Source: an uncultured Candidatus Rokubacteria bacterium (lineage in GTDB: Bacteria > Methylomirabilota > Methylomirabilia > Rokubacteriales > CSP1-6). Taken from it: 64,000 nt of DNA. Shown one piece after another: positions 23,034-31,143 of this stretch; the first letter of the stretch is position 1, and the number at the start of each line of letters is the position of its first letter. The notes under the pieces are model-generated. The model was not told the DNA's origin. It worked only from the letters and a program-made list of their open reading frames with translations, and searched no databases. The position numbers and the translations under genes were made by a program. Location: contig CAVUPM010000002.1 of NCBI GenBank assembly GCA_963743355.1, forward strand, positions 2,546,825 through 2,610,824, written 5' to 3'.

Positions 23034-25724
23034 TTACGCGCCGGTGCGGGCCACGGCGTCGTACACGCCGTCGAGAGCAGCGTCGAGCTTGGCGGGTTCC
23101 TTGCCGCCGGCCTGGGCGAGATCCGGACGGCCGCCCCCGCCCCCGCCGACGGCGCGGGCCACCTCCTGCACCAGCTTGCCGGCCTGGAAGCGCTTGGTCA
23201 GGTCCTTGGTGACCGCCGCCACGAGATTGACCTTGCCGTCCACGACGCTGCCGACGAGCACGATGCCCGAGCCGAGCCGCTCGCGCAGGCGATCGGCCAC
23301 CGCGCGCAGGCCGTCGGCGTCGAGCCCGTCGATGCGGCCGGTCACGACGGCGACCCCGTTCACCTGGCGGGCGCCCGCCACCAGATCGTCGGCCTTCGAG
23401 CGGGCGGCCTTGCCCTGGAGCTCCTGGAGCTGGCGCTCGAGCGCGCGCTGCTCGTCCAGCAACTTGCGCAACCGCTGCGGCGCCTCGGCCGGCGCGATCC
23501 TGAGGATGTCGCCGATCTCGCGCAGCACCCGTTGCTGGCGAGCCACCGCCTCGATCGCGGCGGTGCCGGCCACCGCCTCGATGCGGCGCACGCCGGCCGC
23601 CACGGCCCCTTCGGTGTCGACCTTGAAGAAGCCGATCTGGCCGGTGGAATCCAGGTGCGTACCGCCGCACAGCTCGGTCGAGAAGTCGCCGATGCGCACC
23701 ACGCGCACGCGGTCGCCGTACTTCTCGCCGAACAGCGCCATGGCGCCGGAGGCCAGCGCCTCCTTGATGCCCATCACGTCGTGGGTGACGGGCGTGTTGG
23801 CCTGGACCTGCTCGTTGACCAGCTCCTCGATCTGCTCGACCTCGCGGTCCTTCACCGAGCCGCCGTGCGAGAAGTCGAAGCGCAGGTGGTCGGGCGCGAC
23901 GAGCGAGCCAGCCTGGGCCACGTGCGTGCCGAGCACGCGGCGGAGCGCGGCGTGTAGCAGGTGGGTGCCGGTGTGGTGCTGGCGCAGCCCCTGGCGCCGA
24001 GGCGTCTGCACCGCCACCGCCACGTCCTCGTTGTCGCGGAAGCCGCCCGACCGCACGGCCACGCGGTGCACGATGAGCTTGGAGCCTCGGTAGTACGTGT
24101 CGAGAATCTCGCCGCGGCCCTGGCGACCGGCCAGCGTGCCGGTGTCGCCGATCTGGCCGCCCGACTCGGCGTAGGCGGGCGTGCGATCGAGAATGACCTC
24201 GACCTCGTCGCCGGCCGCCGCCTCCCGCACGCGCTGCGTGCCGCGCACCATCGCGAGGATCCGCGCCGGCGTCGTCAGCGTCTCGTAGCCGACGAACTGG
24301 ACCGCGGGGATCTCCGCGCTCAGTCGCTGGTAGACGGCGGCGCTCTCGCTCTCGTCGCCCGCGGTGAACGTCGCGCCCGCCCGCGCCCGGTCGCGCTGGG
24401 CGGTCATCTCGGCCTCGTACGCCACTTGCGTCTCGTCGGTCACGCGCCAGCCCTTCTCCTGGAAAATCTCCTCGGCGAGGTCTTTGGGGAATCCGTGGGT
24501 GTCGTACAGCTTGAAGAGGAACTTCCCATCGAGCTCGAGCGGAGTCGTGAGGTCCGACGGTCCCTGACGGCCCTGGACCCCGGCGTACTCATCTATCAGG
24601 CGCATACCGCTGTCGAGGGTCTCGGCGAACCGCTCCTCCTCGCTCCGCACCACGTCCTCGATGCGCACCCGCTCCTTGAGGATCTCCGGGTACGCCGCAC
24701 CCATCACGTCACCGACCCAGGCTACGGTCTTCCAGAGGAACGGCTCGGTGAGGCCGAGCATGCGGCCGTGGCGCATGGCCCGGCGCATGATCCGTCGCAG
24801 CACGTAGCCGCGCCACTCGTTGGACGGCGTCACGCCGTCGGCGATGAGGAAACTCGCCGTGCGGCCGTGGTCGGCGATGACGCGCATGGAGACGTCGTCG
24901 TCCCCGGAGGCGCCGGGGCGCTTGCCGGCCAGCTCACTGATGCGCGCGATGAGCGGCGCGAACAGGTCGGTCTCCCAGCTCGAGAGCTTACCCTGCATCA
25001 CCGCGGCGACGCGCTCGAGCCCCATGCCGGTGTCGATCGACGGCCGCGGCAGCGGTGTCATGCGCCCGCTGGCGTCGCGGTTGAACTGCATGAACACGAG
25101 GTTCCAGATCTCCAGCCAGCGATCGCACTCGCAGGCCGGCCCCTGGCACACGCGCCCGGCCGCCTCTTCGGCGCACGGCAGGTGATCGCCCTGGTGGAAG
25201 TGGACCTCCGAGCACGGCCCGCAGGGCCCGGTGTCCCCCATCGCCCAGAAGTTGTCCTTCTCGCCCAGGCGCAAGACGCGGTCGTCCTTCAGCCCCGCGA
25301 TCTGCTTCCACAGGGCGAAGGCGTCGTCGTCGTCGGTGTAGACGGTGGCGATGAGCCGGCTCGCGTCGATCCCGAGCTCCTTGGTGAGGAACTCCCAGCC
25401 GAAGGTGATGGCCTCGGCCTTGAAGTAGTCGCCGAACGAGAAGTTGCCGAGCATCTCGAAGAACGTGTGGTGGCGCGCGGTCCGGCCGACGTTCTCGAGG
25501 TCGTTGTGCTTACCGCCGGCCCGCACGCACTTCTGGCAGGTGGTGGCCCGCACGTAGTCGCGCCGCTCCTCACCGAGGAACACGCTCTTGAACTGCACCA
25601 TCCCGGCGTTGGTGAACAGCAGGGTGGGGTCGTTGCCGGGGACGAGCGGGGAGGACTGCACCCGGGTATGGCCGTGGCGCTCGAAGTAGCGGAGGAAGGC
25701 TTCGCGAATGTCGCTACCGGTCAT
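23034..25724 (-). CDS. alaS: Alanine--tRNA ligase
   Basis: MTGSDIREAFLRYFERHGH..., class II aaRS motifs, editing-domain HxxxH/CxxxH region, C-terminal DHHA1 domain. Confidence 0.95.
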   Translation of the reverse strand: MTGSDIREAFLRYFERHGHTRVQSSPLVPGNDPTLLFTNAGMVQFKSVFLGEERRDYVRATTCQKCVRAGGKHNDLENVGRTARHHTFFEMLGNFSFGDYFKAEAITFGWEFLTKELGIDASRLIATVYTDDDDAFALWKQIAGLKDDRVLRLGEKDNFWAMGDTGPCGPCSEVHFHQGDHLPCAEEAAGRVCQGPACECDRWLEIWNLVFMQFNRDASGRMTPLPRPSIDTGMGLERVAAVMQGKLSSWETDLFAPLIARISELAGKRPGASGDDDVSMRVIADHGRTASFLIADGVTPSNEWRGYVLRRIMRRAMRHGRMLGLTEPFLWKTVAWVGDVMGAAYPEILKERVRIEDVVRSEEERFAETLDSGMRLIDEYAGVQGRQGPSDLTTPLELDGKFLFKLYDTHGFPKDLAEEIFQEKGWRVTDETQVAYEAEMTAQRDRARAGATFTAGDESESAAVYQRLSAEIPAVQFVGYETLTTPARILAMVRGTQRVREAAAGDEVEVILDRTPAYAESGGQIGDTGTLAGRQGRGEILDTYYRGSKLIVHRVAVRSGGFRDNEDVAVAVQTPRRQGLRQHHTGTHLLHAALRRVLGTHVAQAGSLVAPDHLRFDFSHGGSVKDREVEQIEELVNEQVQANTPVTHDVMGIKEALASGAMALFGEKYGDRVRVVRIGDFSTELCGGTHLDSTGQIGFFKVDTEGAVAAGVRRIEAVAGTAAIEAVARQQRVLREIGDILRIAPAEAPQRLRKLLDEQRALERQLQELQGKAARSKADDLVAGARQVNGVAVVTGRIDGLDADGLRAVADRLRERLGSGIVLVGSVVDGKVNLVAAVTKDLTKRFQAGKLVQEVARAVGGGGGGRPDLAQAGGKEPAKLDAALDGVYDAVARTGA

Positions 25725-25740
25725 GAGAAAGATAGTTTAC

Positions 25741-25800
25741 CACCCCGGGCGGTGGGGCCCCGGCGCCTGGCACCCCCCGACAGGGGGGGCCGGGGTTACT
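25741..25800. repeat. Degenerate G/C-hairpin sequence possibly related to the dispersed repeat family
   Basis: caccccgggcggtggggccccggcgcctggcaccccccgacagggggggccggggttactcccc between alaS and recX; similarity to the main family is weak. Confidence 0.25.
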
Positions 25801-26260
25801 CCCCGTCTGGCTGTATGCGCAGCGACTCGCGCACCACCCGGGCCACCACCCCGCCCGGAAACCCGCGCCGTAGCAGGTGATCGCGCAGGCGCGCGGCGGC
25901 CTTGCGAGGCTCCGCGCGGGCCAGTGCTGGAAGCCGGCGGCGGGCCAGGCGCCGCGCTTCTTCGAGCTGATCGCCGCGGTCCACGACGGTCAGCGCCGTG
26001 TCGATGAGCGGGGCGGGAACCCCGCGGGCCCGAAGCTCGGCCCGCAGCCGGGCGGTGCCATAGCCGCGGGGGGCGCGGGTCGTGACCCAGTGCCGGGCGA
26101 ACGCCGCATCGTCCACGTGGCCGCGCGCAACGAGGTCGTCGGTGACGCTGGCGGCGACGTCCAGCGGGGCGCCGCGGCGCCGGAGCCTGGTCATGAGGTC
26201 GGCCCGGGTCCAGGCGCGGCGGGCCAGCAGGTCACCCGCGGCCAGGCGGGCGGCCTTGAG
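25796..26260 (-). CDS. recX: RecA regulator RecX; N-terminal extent uncertain (no canonical start codon in frame)
   Basis: RecX helical repeats ...DLLARRAWTRADLMTRLRRRG...LRAELRARGVP...AARLRDHLLRRGF; the frame stays open up to the recA stop with RecX-like sequence but no ATG/GTG/TTG. Confidence 0.65.
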   Translation of the reverse strand, partial: LKAARLAAGDLLARRAWTRADLMTRLRRRGAPLDVAASVTDDLVARGHVDDAAFARHWVTTRAPRGYGTARLRAELRARGVPAPLIDTALTVVDRGDQLEEARRLARRRLPALARAEPRKAAARLRDHLLRRGFPGGVVARVVRESLRIQPDGE

Positions 26261-26293
26261 ATCCAGCTCCCGCCGTGGCGCGCGGATGGTCGG

Positions 26294-28396
26294 CTACTTC
26301 AGCGAGGCGGCCGCCCGCAGGCCGAGCGCCTCGCGGACCTTGGCCTCGAGGTCGGCCAGCGCCACCGGGTTCTCCTGCAGCCACTTCTTGGCGTTCTCCC
26401 GGCCCTGCCCGATGCGCTCGTTCTTGAAGCTGTACCAGGTGCCGGACTTCTCGACGAGGCTCTGCTCGACCGCCGCGTCGAGCACGGTCCCCGACTTGGA
26501 CACACCCTCGCCGTAGATGACGTCGAACTCGGCCTCGCGGAACGGCGGCGCCAGCTTGTTCTTCACGACCTTCACCTTGGTGCGCACGCCGATCGACTCC
26601 GTCCCCTGCTTGATCGCATCCTGCCGCCGGATGTCCAGCCGCACGGAGGCGTAGAACTTGAGCGCGCGCCCGCCGGTCGTGGTTTCTGGCGAGTTGTGCA
26701 CGACGACGCCGTCGGCCAGGTAGGTATGGTTGCCCTCGATCTCGAGGTCGAAGCGGTGCGTCGACCGCGTCGGTGGCTTGATGTAGCACTTCGTGATCTC
26801 GACAGGGACAACGCGCAGTCGGCGTCGGCCCGCGAGGCGCTCAGTCTCACTCAGATGAGCATCTCCATCGTCGACGTGCCAGATGAACCGGCCCCTCTGA
26901 GAGGGATGCAGCTTGTAGTCCATCGAGGGATGAAGGTATGGCGAGATCAGCTCGTGAAACCGGGCCGTGTCCTCGGAGTTGAACCAGAAACCGCGATCAT
27001 CGTCACGAACATCGGGGAACCCAAGGCGGGCCAAGGCCCCGAGGACTACGGCGCGTCCGGCAGCCTTCAATGACGTATTGTAGATGACTGCCTTGCCCTT
27101 GCCCCAGCGATTGTAAGACCCCATGAAGGAGCCGTCGTCGCCATACCAGACAGCGAGCCCTCGGGCATCGAGGCGGCCGAGACCGGGGTTCGTTGCGATG
27201 CGGCGTCCGGTCGTGTCGTAGAGCTCACCGTGCAGTTCAGCAAGGGCAGGCATCGTGAGAATGCTGAACCCGACGCCGTTGCCGACCCGGCCAATCGGCC
27301 GCGCGAAGGGTTCGAGCATCGAATGCTTCCATTCCAGGTAAGCCTTTTGCGCCGGCGCGTGGGCCACCCGGAAATGCGCGGCGTGACGCCCCACCATACG
27401 GATCGAACCGTCGCCTAGGGTCCCCCCGAGCAGAAGCTGGTACTGGTCACCGGACAACGCATAGTCCGGCATGGCGAACAGCACCTTGTCACCGACCTTC
27501 AGCTTACCCGCAGGAACTTCACCAGTGGGGGTAAAGACCATGTGGTTCGGAGTCGCGGCAAAGCAGCGTCGGCGCGCTGGTCCTCCACGAACTTCAAACT
27601 GAATAAAGTGCTCGGTCACGCCGTTGTCGAACCAGTTGACGACGCGGCGAGGCTCTACCCGTCCGCTCTCGGGATCGTACGAGAGCACCTCCACCGCTCG
27701 ACGTTCCCGGACGATCCGACCGATCGGTACGCGGGTTCCATCGGCTAGAAGCACGAGAGTGTCGTGATGCAGACACCCAAACATTACTCCGATCTTCTCG
27801 CGGATCTGGTTGATGAAGACGACGACGACGCCGGAGCGGGAGATGGCGGCGGTGAGCTTGCGCAGGGCCTGCGACATGAGGCGCGCCTGCAGGCCGGGCA
27901 GCGAGTCGCCCATGTCGCCGTCGAGCTCGGCGCGCGGCACCAGCGCGGCGACCGAGTCGATCACGATGACGTCGACCGCGTTGGAACGCACGAGCGTCTC
28001 GGTGATCTCCAGCGCCTGCTCGCCGGTGTCGGGCTGCGAGATCAGCAGCTCGTCGATGTTGACGCCGAGCTTGCGCGCGTAGATGGGATCGAGGGCGTGC
28101 TCGGCGTCGATGAAGGCCGCGATGCCGCCCAGGTTCTGGGCCTCGGCGATGACGTGCAGGGCCAGCGTCGTCTTGCCCGACGACTCCGGCCCGTAGATCT
28201 CGACGACCCGACCGCGCGGCAGGCCCCCGATGCCGAGCGCGGCGTCGAGCGAGAGGGCGCCGGTGGGGATGACGGCGATCTCCTCGAGCGGGCCGTTCGC
28301 GCCCAGCCGCATGACCGAGCCCTTGCCGAACTGTCGCTCGATCTGCGAGATCGCCAGCTCGAGGGCCTGCCGCCGATCGTTCTTGCTCTCAGCCAT
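26294..28396 (-). CDS. recA: Recombinase RecA interrupted by an in-frame intein (700-codon ORF: 207-aa N-extein, 361-aa intein, 132-aa C-extein)
   Basis: RBS AAGGAG then [26 protein letters not shown]...; Walker [10 protein letters not shown]; the extein junction ...KIGVMFG/[[10 protein letters not shown]...GVVVHN]/[23 protein letters not shown]. Confidence 0.9.
26693..27775 (-). mobile_element. RecA intein of 361 aa with Hint splicing blocks and a double-motif LAGLIDADG homing endonuclease, at the RecA-a insertion site
   Basis: Block [22 protein letters not shown] at N-end; block G ...[17 protein letters not shown] followed by +1 Ser; LAGLIDADG-like [12 protein letters not shown] and VWYGDDGSF; markedly lower GC (about 58-60%) than the flanking recA exteins. 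Confidence 0.8.
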
Positions 28397-28445
28397 GCGT
28401 AGGCTCCTTGTCTCGTGTAAGGGTCGAACGCGGCTCACGAGGGTG

Positions 28446-28487
28446 ATGCACGCGTGCATTCTAGGTGCGTGCGCACGACACCGTCAA
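28446..28487 (-). promoter_or_regulatory. Near-consensus sigma70 promoter for recA (TTGACG-18-TAGAAT) overlapped by a perfect 14-bp palindrome ATGCACGCGTGCAT (candidate SOS/repressor operator)
   Basis: On the recA strand: ttgacggtgtcgtgcgcacgcacctagaatgcacgcgtgcatcac; -35 at 28482-28487, -10 at 28458-28463, palindrome 28446-28459, a second palindrome GTGCGCAC in the spacer. Confidence 0.45.
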
Positions 28488-28765: not shown

Positions 28766-29727
28766 GGGCGGTCCGCCTGCCAGCGCTCGAGGCACCGCAC
28801 CGCGTCGGCCCGGCCGCGCGCGAGCGCCGCGATCATGCCAGCCGGATCGAACTCGAGCGGCCGCAGTTGCAGCGGCCCCCCCGGCGTGAGGAGCTGAACG
28901 TCCACGGCCGGGTACTTGAAGCGCGCCAGCTCGGCGTCGCGCCGGATCTGATGAATCATCGCCGTCTCGAATGCCTCCTCCAGCGTGCGGCGCAAGCGAG
29001 TGGGTGCCTGGCCGGGCTCGTCGGCGGCGTAGCTCAACAGCACGAGCGCGCGGCCGATCGGGACCTCGGTCGCCAGCGCCTCCAGCACCGGCGCGCGGCC
29101 GGTGAGCCCGCCGTCGACGAGCAGCGTGCCGTCCACGCTCACCGGCGGGAAGGCGCCGGGCACCGCCGCCGCCGCCATCAGCGCGTCCACGCTGACCGTG
29201 GCGTTGTCGAAGATGCGGGGCGCGCGCCGGGCCAGGTCGGTGGTGACGACGAGCAAGCGGCGGGGCGAGACGCGGATGCGCTCGACGTCCAGCGCGCCGG
29301 CGATCAGCTCGCGCAGCGGGGTCGGGTCGAAGAGCGAGCCAGCCGCGTCGAGCGCGAGAAGCGTCAGCCAGCCCGGCAACAGGCCGGCGAAGATCACGCT
29401 GGGACGGAAGGCGTACACCTGCTCGCGTGACAGCGAGCGCCAGAGCGCCTGCAGCCGGTCGAGACGTCCGTCGGCGAGCATGGCCGCGTTGAGGGCGCCG
29501 GCCGAGGAGCCGGCGACCAGGTTCACCGGCAGGCCGCGCTCGATGAGGGCCGCGGCGGCGCCGGCCTCCCACGCGCCCTTGGCCCCCCCGCCGGACAGGA
29601 CGAGCGCGACGGGCGTGTCGAGGGCCGTGCGGGCCGGCTCGCAGGCGTGCGCGGGGGTCACCGAGACGAGAAGGACGGCGGCGAGCAGCGTGCGGAGCGC
29701 CCGTGGGGCTGACGGCACGCCCCACAT
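28762..29727 (-). CDS. Secreted patatin-like phospholipase
   Basis: Signal peptide MWGVPSAPRALRTLLAAVLLVSVTPAHA; oxyanion GGGAKG, nucleophile elbow GSSAG, catalytic DGG (LVDGGL). Confidence 0.8.
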   Translation of the reverse strand: MWGVPSAPRALRTLLAAVLLVSVTPAHACEPARTALDTPVALVLSGGGAKGAWEAGAAAALIERGLPVNLVAGSSAGALNAAMLADGRLDRLQALWRSLSREQVYAFRPSVIFAGLLPGWLTLLALDAAGSLFDPTPLRELIAGALDVERIRVSPRRLLVVTTDLARRAPRIFDNATVSVDALMAAAAVPGAFPPVSVDGTLLVDGGLTGRAPVLEALATEVPIGRALVLLSYAADEPGQAPTRLRRTLEEAFETAMIHQIRRDAELARFKYPAVDVQLLTPGGPLQLRPLEFDPAGMIAALARGRADAVRCLERWQADRP

Positions 29728-29728
29728 T

Positions 29729-30290
29729 CTACCCGGGCGATCCAGCCACCAGCGGCACGGCGGCGAGCTCGGTGTAGCGGGCTCCACGCGGAGACAGCTC
29801 GCTGCGCATCAGCGCCAGACGATCCACGCGCTGCCGGCCGAAGGCCGCGCCGCCGGCCAGCGCCTCGACCAAGCGCGGGTTGGAGCGCGGCGCGCGCACG
29901 CGACCGAGGGTCACGTGGGCGGAGAACGCGCGCGACTCGGCCGGAAAGCCGAGCGCGACGAGCGCGTCGTCGACCCGGCGGGCCAGCGTCGCCGCCAGTG
30001 CAGCGCCCTCGTCGGCCCCGGCCCAGAGCACGCGCGGGCGCGCCGGAGTGGGAAAGGCGCCCAGGCCGCGCACGGTGAGGTCGAAGGGGCGACAGCCCGC
30101 CACCGCGCCGGCCAGCGCGCCAGCGACGGCGTCGAGCCGAGCCGCCTCGACGCCGCCAAGAAACTTGAGCGTCAGGTGGACGTTGTCGGGGGCGACCCAG
30201 GCCACGTCCCGGGCCACGAGCCGCAGGCGCTCGACCTCCGTCGCCAGCCGCTCCCGGATGTCCTCGGTCAGCAGGATGGCGACGAAGGAC
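29729..30290 (-). CDS. thpR: RNA 2',3'-cyclic phosphodiesterase / 2'-5' RNA ligase (2H phosphoesterase, ThpR/LigT); start codon unresolved
   Basis: Two H-x-T-x motifs (HLTLKFLG and HVTLGRV); no canonical start in the short window between the upstream stop and the conserved N-terminus VRSFVAILL. Confidence 0.65.
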
Positions 30291-30300
30291 CGAACGGTCG

Positions 30301-31143
30301 CTATGGTGCGCTTTCCAGCATCCGCAGGAGATTCTCGAGCGAGACCCGCCGCGCCGGGTCCTTCTCCATGTCGAGCGCGGCTCGGAGATCCTGCAGCGCG
30401 CCGGCGCGGTCGCCATCGAGCTGACGGCTGATCGCCCGCGTGGCCAGCGCTCGCGCGTCGATCGACTCGGGCGTGGGCGGCGAGGCCGCCGGCGCCGTCG
30501 GCGGCGTGGCCGCCAGCGTCGCGGGTGGCGGGAGCGGTACGGCATCGGTCGCCATGCCGGGCGGCGGCGCCGGCGCCACCGTGGCCGCGGTCGTCGGCAC
30601 CCCGGCCGTGGCCAGCGCCGGGCTCCGCTCGAGGCCGGCGCTGCGGCGCATGGCCGCACGCGCCCATGGATCGCCCTCCACGTCGATGGCGTGCAGCCAG
30701 TCCTTCATGGCCGCCTCGGGTTGGCCGGCCAGCGCGCGCGCGCTGCCGCGGTTGAACCACGCCTTGGCGTACACCGGCGACAGCTCGACGGCCCGAGTGA
30801 AGTCCTCGATCGCCGGCCCGTACTGGCCGGCGGCGACCAGGGCGTTGCCGCGGTTGAAATAGATTGCGGGGTCGTCGTTGTCGAGTTGGATGGCCCGGTT
30901 GTAGTCCTCGATCGCCAAATTGAGCTGGCCCAGCCTCACTCGCGCGATGCCGCGATTGACGTAGGCGTCGACCGAGCGCGGATCCTGCCGGACCGCCTCG
31001 TTGAACTCGCCGGCGGCGAAGACGTAGTTGCCGTCCTGATAGTGCGCGATCCCCCGCTCGAGCGGGCGGGCCGAGGTCGCGCATCCGGCCGCGACGACGG
31101 CGAGGCCCCCGAGCGTCACAGTGGTCAACGTCTTGCGCATCAT
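30301..31143 (-). CDS. TPR-repeat lipoprotein
   Basis: MMRKTLTTVTLGGLAVVAAGC lipobox, three TPR units (AYVNRGIARVRLGQLNLAIEDYNRAIQLD...), Pro/Ala-rich linker, C-terminal helical region. Confidence 0.7.
   Translation of the reverse strand: MMRKTLTTVTLGGLAVVAAGCATSARPLERGIAHYQDGNYVFAAGEFNEAVRQDPRSVDAYVNRGIARVRLGQLNLAIEDYNRAIQLDNDDPAIYFNRGNALVAAGQYGPAIEDFTRAVELSPVYAKAWFNRGSARALAGQPEAAMKDWLHAIDVEGDPWARAAMRRSAGLERSPALATAGVPTTAATVAPAPPPGMATDAVPLPPPATLAATPPTAPAASPPTPESIDARALATRAISRQLDGDRAGALQDLRAALDMEKDPARRVSLENLLRMLESAP

Follow-up and report, generated by a model that had tools for sequence, protein, structure and literature searches.

The recA gene in the 64,000-nucleotide stretch of Candidatus Rokubacteria DNA analysed here (contig CAVUPM010000002.1; the whole stretch is referred to below as the window) is interrupted in frame by a 361-residue intein, an element with a complete intein anatomy that is inserted exactly, keeps all of its catalytic residues and belongs to a family of inteins occupying the same site, DNA-binding loop L2 of RecA, in other genomes. 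We put the probability that this is an intact and splicing-competent member of the L2-site RecA family at roughly 85%. The insert runs from CLHHDT to GVVVHN and makes up residues 208-568 of the precursor, between ...KIGVMFG and SPETTTGG..., leaving exteins of 207 and 132 residues; it lies precisely where the original prediction, made from the letters of the DNA alone, had placed it (26693-27775, within a recA of 700 codons). When the exteins are joined, the result is a RecA of 339 residues, which is matched colinearly and in a single stretch by positions 1-321 of TIGR02012, the RecA equivalog model (E-value, E, 2e-167), whereas in the unspliced precursor the same match falls in two pieces flanking the insert. 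The joined protein also aligns to E. coli RecA, gapless across the junction, and the claim that the two exteins form a normal RecA therefore passed its colinearity check. The top 120 RecA relatives in a collection of 5.8 billion sequences are 93-98% identical, nearly all 339-340 residues long, and intein-free. At the DNA level, syntenic loci (L084 and L086-L090) align on either side of the intein, with exactly 1083 nucleotides in between left unmatched; the intein-free recA junction reads ...AAGATCGGGGTCATGTTCGGGTCGCCGGAGACGACG..., and that of the locus L086 reads ...ATCGGGGTCATGTTCGGGTCGCCGGAGACC....

Everything that a class-1 intein should need for splicing is present, namely Cys1, T75-x-x-H78, D343, H350, H360-N361 and Ser+1. 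For conservation we aligned 73 family members from many phyla, selected as full-length matches, and across these homologues C1, T75-P-N-H78, D343, H350, H360-N361 and S+1 are invariant or show one exception at most; the block A cysteine at the start of the insert and the +1 serine that follows block G had both been pointed out beforehand, and both stand. A search of the insert for intein (Hint) domains, which had been proposed as a check, found TIGR01445 intein_Nterm over residues 1-82 (E 1e-11, 45.5 bits against a curated cut-off of 24.5) and TIGR01443 intein_Cterm (E 6e-6, 26.4 bits against 15.6), while Pfam Intein_splicing scored 26.2 bits on the insert, under its gathering score of 35.8. 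By sequence, the closest solved structures are the mini-inteins of M. tuberculosis RecA, the splicing domain of PI-MtuI being matched over residues 12-99 and 335-361 at E 6e-12, and at the C-terminal side of the HINT domain the alignment pairs the insert with PTRRARTFDLEVEELHTLVAEGVVVHN of PI-MtuI, with an identical VVVHN end. An AlphaFold (AF2) model of the intein, built from an alignment of 12 sequences, has a predicted local distance difference test score (pLDDT) of 91.2 and a predicted template modelling score (pTM) of 0.84. In Foldseek comparisons its HINT part superimposes on the M. tuberculosis RecA mini-inteins 3ifj and 5i0a with a root-mean-square deviation (rmsd) of 1.3-1.5 A and 33% identity over some 100 aligned positions; taken over the M. 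tuberculosis RecA, Ssp DnaB and Npu DnaE mini-inteins the rmsd is 1.3-1.8 A, at a probability of 1.00, and hedgehog HINT domains are also matched with a probability of 1.00. The entire model matches the endonuclease-containing inteins TliVMA, PI-PfuI and PI-SceI. We regard the insert as a canonical class-1 'large' intein.

The intein sits after G207 of RecA, in loop L2, with the junction KIGVMFG/SPETT. This is not the site of the M. tuberculosis RecA intein, as had been claimed under the name RecA-a. NF007072, which models the M. tuberculosis-type precursor in NCBIfam over 790 positions, has its N-extein positions 5-251 aligned to spliced residues 6-253, and the M. tuberculosis site must therefore follow ...VKVVKNK253, 46 residues downstream of G207. 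The same model reaches 478 bits, nearly all of them contributed by the exteins, where its cut-off is 1024, and an M. tuberculosis-type (RecA-a) allele was rejected on both grounds, the position of the insertion (after residue 207, not 253) and the score. As for names, we take RecA-a to be the InBase term for the M. tuberculosis site and RecA-b that for the M. leprae-type site (PI-MleI). Every homologue with a readable junction, which means 32 proteins in which both junctions can be read and 72 genomic loci, has KIGVMFG/C...HN/SPETT.

What the window intein does resemble is the RecA intein of M. leprae, PI-MleI, which lies in the same host protein and has been placed in the same loop, L2 (PMC3239194). 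The two mycobacterial RecA inteins are unlike in size, sequence and location (PMC5874633), with 440 residues in M. tuberculosis and 365 in M. leprae (PMC8861304); the latter is nearly equal to the 361 found here, and a LAGLIDADG endonuclease is present in both. Over its full length (residues 1-361) the window intein is homologous to same-site inteins of 364 residues in Mycobacteriales and other Actinomycetes, with 40-46% identity and E of about 1e-77; L057, L078 and others stand at 44-46%. This actinobacterial clade (about 40-46% identical) differs in having two 6-residue insertions within its endonuclease domain and in the linker that precedes block F, which is shorter. The host of the window, to judge by the names attached to its closest RecAs and inteins (mostly Methylomirabilota/Rokubacteria), is probably a Methylomirabilota- or Rokubacteria-like soil bacterium and not a mycobacterium. 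By its insertion site the element is an M. leprae-type (L2-site) RecA intein; in sequence, the link to M. leprae runs through Mycobacteriales metagenome-assembled genomes (MAGs) and the literature rather than through the M. leprae sequence itself. Its splicing domain is more distantly related to that of PI-MtuI: both are class-1 inteins of RecA with a Cys1 and with homologous HINT domains, but PI-MtuI has 440 residues rather than 361, and there is no detectable similarity between the endonuclease regions. The +1 residue of the M. tuberculosis RecA intein is cysteine, and that of the window intein is serine.

Between the two parts of the HINT domain lies a LAGLIDADG homing-endonuclease domain of the single-chain, two-motif, I-SceI-like kind. 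The original prediction had noticed two LAGLIDADG motifs in the insert, and both could be located (residues 114-125 and 209-217), while the Pfam family it had expected, LAGLIDADG_3, gave way to LAGLIDADG_2 (PF03161), which matches intein residues 113-220 at E 4e-13 with 50 bits against a cut-off of 25. In HMMER alignments the domain finds I-WcaI at E 3e-6 and I-SceI at E 5e-3, and LGDGS (D122) and YGDDGS (D214) fall on the two LAGLIDADG motifs of these enzymes; Foldseek superimposes the modelled domain on them with a template modelling (TM) score of 0.69-0.70 (normalised to the target), an rmsd of 3.0-3.2 A and 21-23% identity. The domain shares the fold, both motifs and a C-terminal PYL.P.M.YKL motif with these enzymes. 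I-SceI and I-WcaI are free-standing and come from mitochondrial group I introns, whereas the window domain sits inside a HINT domain, to be freed by splicing, and its target is presumably the recA sequence encoding L2, which is unrelated to the I-SceI site.

Conservation of residues and domains was used here in place of the ratio of non-synonymous to synonymous substitution rates (dN/dS), because the nearest intein is 73% identical in protein and synonymous sites are saturated. C1, T75, H78, D122, D213, D214, D343, H360 and N361 do not vary among the 73 family members, none of which has an internal stop; G121, D122 and G123 of motif 1 are invariant or almost so, and D213, D214 and G215 of motif 2 are the same in all 73. 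In the closest set the endonuclease domain is conserved at 63%, exactly as is the N-terminal HINT part. This is the pattern that purifying selection on the nuclease would produce, and together with the Pfam match and the two aligned aspartates it leads us to think that the endonuclease is probably functional.

How such an element would work is easily set out, with the proviso that both splicing and endonuclease activity are what we infer for the window intein from its sequence. The gene would be translated as a precursor of 700 residues, in which the HINT domain (intein residues 1-105 and 319-361) would fold around the inserted endonuclease domain. Cys1 would then bring about an N-S acyl shift at Gly207-Cys1, Ser+1 would attack the resulting thioester in a trans-esterification, and cyclisation of Asn361, helped by His360, would free the intein, after which an O-N shift would ligate ...KIGVMFG to SPETTTGG... 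and give a normal RecA of 339 residues with an intact L2 loop. The freed intein would be a monomeric, two-motif, I-SceI-like LAGLIDADG endonuclease, with Asp122 and Asp214 as predicted catalytic residues, and would be expected to cut intein-free recA at the junction between ATGTTCGG and TCGCC..., whereupon repair of the double-strand break would copy the intein in (homing). Indirect evidence for such cleavage comes from the conservation that suggests purifying selection on the domain and from the sporadic distribution of the intein.

The family to which the intein belongs is large. A scan of one genome per species, covering 185,579 species, found at least 569 loci encoding relatives, from many phyla; among proteins, homologous RecA inteins match with E down to 1e-168. 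To call this intein notable, as had been done, is too strong when the same allele is present in at least 569 species genomes. Among the best 80 of these (of at least 569) are Rokubacteria/Methylomirabilota at 59-71% identity, Eisenbacteria, Gemmatimonadota, Armatimonadota, Blastocatellia and a MAG labelled Heliomicrobium, together with Solirubrobacterales/Thermoleophilia (46-51%), Chromatium and Competibacteraceae (48-50%), Chloroflexales and many Actinomycetes (40-43%); the closest known intein among the matches listed is 71-73% identical. In 2015 a survey recorded RecA inteins from three phyla alone, Actinobacteria, Cyanobacteria and Proteobacteria (PMC4760082). The L2-site RecA intein is seen here in a much wider range of hosts, and the kind of element is unchanged. 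As a cross-phylum family it would span Methylomirabilota, Eisenbacteria, Gemmatimonadota, Armatimonadota, Acidobacteria, Actinomycetota, Gammaproteobacteria and Chloroflexota.

The same or the homologous site is also occupied in phage and predicted viral genes. A UvsX-like protein of Yersinia phage fHe-Yen9-02 has an intein at the homologous site (...KPATMFG/CLHGST...GIVVHN/SPEYEP) that is 26% identical over the whole 361 residues, and predicted viral RecA-like genes (L091-L093) contain ...IGVMFG/CFHY...HN/SPETT inteins that are 36-42% identical to that of the window. Phage and viral same-site inteins have the same architecture, but are 25-42% identical to the window intein, and their exteins are divergent phage recombinases. 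From their occurrence in phage UvsX-like and viral RecA-like genes it follows that phage recombinase genes are plausible vectors. Plasmids yielded no close relative; the inteins that a search of them returned are distant ones, in genes for RNA ligases and recombinases. The fHe-Yen9-02 protein also has a second intein, 10 residues downstream of the first (...ALKFY/CFAEDT...FVSHN/SDVRV).

In base composition the intein stands out from its gene. Its GC content is 62.4%, the exteins having 69.2% and 68.4% and the window 72.1%, and its GC content at third codon positions (GC3) is 0.73, against 0.96-0.97 for the exteins and a median of 0.94 for the other genes of the window. The original prediction gave 58-60% GC for the intein and about 72% for the exteins; it was right that the intein is lower and that the insert looks foreign, the figures themselves were off (62.4% against about 69%), and the clear contrast is that in GC3. 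From a GC3 of 0.73 against 0.96, and from closest relatives that are free of the intein, we infer a relatively recent horizontal arrival. Close to the junction, 5 of the 13 extein codons that end in A or T fall within codons 203-210 (hypergeometric P of about 8e-6, for a span chosen after the fact), and mismatches against the closest intein-free allele, L086, cluster between -22 and +17 nucleotides of the junction (P of about 6e-5). This cluster of A/T-ending codons and mismatches is strong statistically and is suggestive of a co-conversion tract, and is not taken as establishing one, because the intein-free relatives L088-L090 also carry GGA, CCA and GAA at the junction codons and the test span was picked after the data had been seen. 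Alternatively, the A/T-ending junction codons may be synonymous changes by which the site escapes cutting by the endonuclease. The junction codons (26669-26692 and 27776-27796) include GGA, GTA, TTT, CCA and GAA, in a gene with an otherwise 96% GC3.

Is the intein still on the move? We would give somewhat better than even odds to the view that its endonuclease remains active and that it is mobile at present. The strongest competitor to this is an intein that goes on splicing but no longer moves, its endonuclease being inactive or having drifted from its target, and that persists late in the homing cycle since its loss would have to be exact. Decay of this kind, partial or full, does occur in the family, in that same-site RecA inteins of 205, 234, 239 and 268 residues (P0113, P0061, P0064 and P0045) have the endonuclease mostly or partly deleted and represent mini-intein stages; in addition, intein identity roughly tracks host phylogeny, which fits a long vertical residence, and a closely related donor is not known, the best intein identity being 71-73%. 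In the window, however, the reading frame is intact and both LAGLIDADG aspartates are kept, and the endonuclease is conserved as well as the N-terminal HINT part, with its key residues invariant in all 73 members, which indicates purifying selection. The closest RecA relatives, moreover, are without the intein, and its GC3 has not been raised to the level of the host. On balance, then, we consider an immobile intein unlikely, and distinctly less likely than an active one.

A fuller history can be told, and we offer it tentatively, since taken as a whole it seems to us less probable than not. In it, a homing intein that is still active would have invaded a Rokubacteria-like recA fairly recently; this intein would belong to a cross-phylum soil family, would have phage RecA- or UvsX-like genes as its vectors and would have left the junction codons as a co-conversion scar. 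Several points count against activity, mobility and recent arrival and should be weighed together. The choice of full-length matches for the 73-member set favours intact copies. Part of the low GC3 may be due not to recent transfer but to codon selection that is weaker on the intein than on recA, a highly expressed gene; intein GC3 lies below extein GC3 in almost all hosts of the L2-site family, and GC3 is therefore only partial evidence for a recent arrival. The nearest intein-free syntenic loci are 87-90% identical in flanking DNA, so that these nearest intein-free relatives are other species, and with the closest known intein at 71-73% identity a recent donor has not been identified. Finally, M. 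leprae-type RecA inteins have been reported to splice only in mycobacterial hosts and not in E. coli (PMC5874633), and the activity of the window intein may therefore depend on conditions. A polymorphism of presence and absence within the species was rejected as unproven, the best intein-free syntenic loci being those 87-90% identical in their flanks.

A quite different idea is that the host keeps the intein for regulation, as a conditional post-translational switch on RecA in which the split L2 loop would block recombination until some trigger, such as redox state, metal ions, single-stranded DNA or DNA damage, set off splicing. Several points speak for it: the intein is found in a functionally critical loop (PMC3239194), splicing of the M. 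leprae RecA intein is host-dependent (PMC5874633), single-stranded DNA and DNA damage stimulate an archaeal RadA intein to splice (PMC5238726), a reaction controlled by contacts between extein and intein (PMC4513877), and a functional reason has been argued for the clustering of inteins in ATPases and in proteins of recombination (PMC4760082). On the other hand, a sporadic distribution with intein-free closest relatives is the signature of a selfish element and not of a conserved regulator, and the same holds for a homing endonuclease that has been kept and for codon usage that is foreign; residence in a conserved active-site loop is explained equally well by an endonuclease that needs an invariant target. 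We therefore think a regulatory role improbable, more so than that of an intein which has lost its mobility.

It is scarcely credible that the interrupted gene is an artefact, either a metagenome assembly chimera with an intein-bearing recA from a population of lower GC or a pseudogenised recA, since, for all that the intein differs in composition from the rest of the window, that exact look-ups of the RecA precursor (with both starts) and of AlaS found no independent copy in a public protein collection, and that public MAGs very often have only part of an intein-containing recA, at the end of a contig, the frame runs unbroken through 700 codons and both junctions fall on exactly the canonical residues, both exteins share the extreme GC3 of the host and match the closest relative, L086, at 95% of nucleotides, the same architecture recurs in 68 other loci within long contigs, and a chimera would require crossing over to have happened twice, each time no more than a few nucleotides from a junction.

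The public MAGs also present two observations of their own. Near-identical RecAs (94-98%) appear under the conflicting labels Methylomirabilota, Rokuibacteriota, Candidatus Acidoferrum, Solirubrobacteraceae, Binatia and Patescibacteria, which points to mis-binned contigs, and many of the intein-containing recA entries are marked 'partial' where a contig ends.

Around the intein, the window has the gene order patatin - small open reading frame (ORF) - recA - recX - alaS, as do the syntenic intein-free relatives. According to the ORF listing, the recA frame is unbroken on the minus strand from 26294 to 28459 and would give 721 residues from the first ATG, so that it runs 21 codons (28397-28459) 5' of the conserved start, to an ATG at 28459. 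The start at 28396 is the MAESKND... start of all close homologues of 339 residues, and for this reason we take it as the real one, with 700 codons. A sigma-70-like promoter match lies 5' of it, within the longer 721-residue ORF, and because the match overlaps the 21-codon extension, automatic callers may over-extend recA to 721 residues. Long ORFs of up to 639 residues run antisense to alaS, recX, recA and the patatin gene (23961-25880, 25877-27073 and 29102-30424, all on the plus strand, and others); these have the look not of genes but of the shadow ORFs that are usual in a genome of 72% GC, where stop codons are scarce. The coordinates of the features are collected in the table.

Table 1. 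Coordinates of the recA intein, its parts and surroundings in the window, and of same-site inteins in phage and predicted viral sequences (positions in the window unless a locus or accession is given).
Feature	Position	Strand	Remarks
recA precursor coding sequence	26294..28396	(-)	700 codons + stop; N-extein + intein + C-extein; Pfam RecA E 4e-133, RecA_C E 1.5e-22
N-extein, RecA residues 1-207	27776..28396	(-)	first half of DNA-binding loop L2 at its end; gapless against E. coli RecA ...finqirmkigvmfg/npetttgg
Intein, 361 residues, Cys1 ... His360-Asn361, then Ser+1	26693..27775	(-)	in-frame insert of 1083 nucleotides; syntenic intein-free loci break exactly here
C-extein, RecA residues 208-339 + stop codon	26294..26692	(-)	begins with Ser+1 nucleophile (SPETTTGG), second half of loop L2
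HINT splicing domain, N-terminal part, intein residues 1-105	27461..27775	(-)	block A Cys1; block B T75-P-N-H78 (27542-27553)
LAGLIDADG homing-endonuclease domain, intein residues 106-318	26822..27460	(-)	I-SceI-like, single chain, two motifs
LAGLIDADG motif 1, residues 114-125, predicted catalytic Asp122	27401..27436	(-)	aligns with I-WcaI motif ...ignilgdvyi
LAGLIDADG motif 2, VWYGDDGSF, residues 209-217, predicted catalytic Asp214	27125..27151	(-)	aligns with laywfmddgg of I-SceI and I-WcaI
HINT domain, C-terminal part, intein residues 319-361	26693..26821	(-)	blocks F and G: D343, H350, H360, N361
Intein + about 8 flanking extein codons (203-210), possible co-conversion tract	26669..27796	(-)	cluster of A/T-ending codons
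Sigma-70-like promoter match, TTGACG-18-TAGAAT	28458..28487	(-)	10/12 positions; 0.2 expected by chance; consensus match only
recX, downstream of recA	25796..26194	(-)	ORF listing
alaS, after recX	23034-25724		ORF listing
Phage UvsX-like recombinase	L085 625-4047; OR620964.1 118205-121708		two inteins 10 residues apart
IMG/VR predicted viral contigs with L2-site intein	L091 2900-3979; L092 4001-5083; L093 2049-3107		RecA-like ORFs of 693-800 residues

For annotation, the message is that this recA should be treated as one intein-containing gene of 700 codons, with a RecA of 339 residues and a free endonuclease of 361 residues as its product, and not as a fragment or a pseudogene. The finding adds a Rokubacteria-like host to a known selfish element and leaves our knowledge about inteins as such unchanged, and the endonuclease could supply a new rare-cutting specificity. 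With so wide a spread, the L2-site RecA intein family is a good system in which to study the dynamics of the homing cycle in uncultured soil bacteria.

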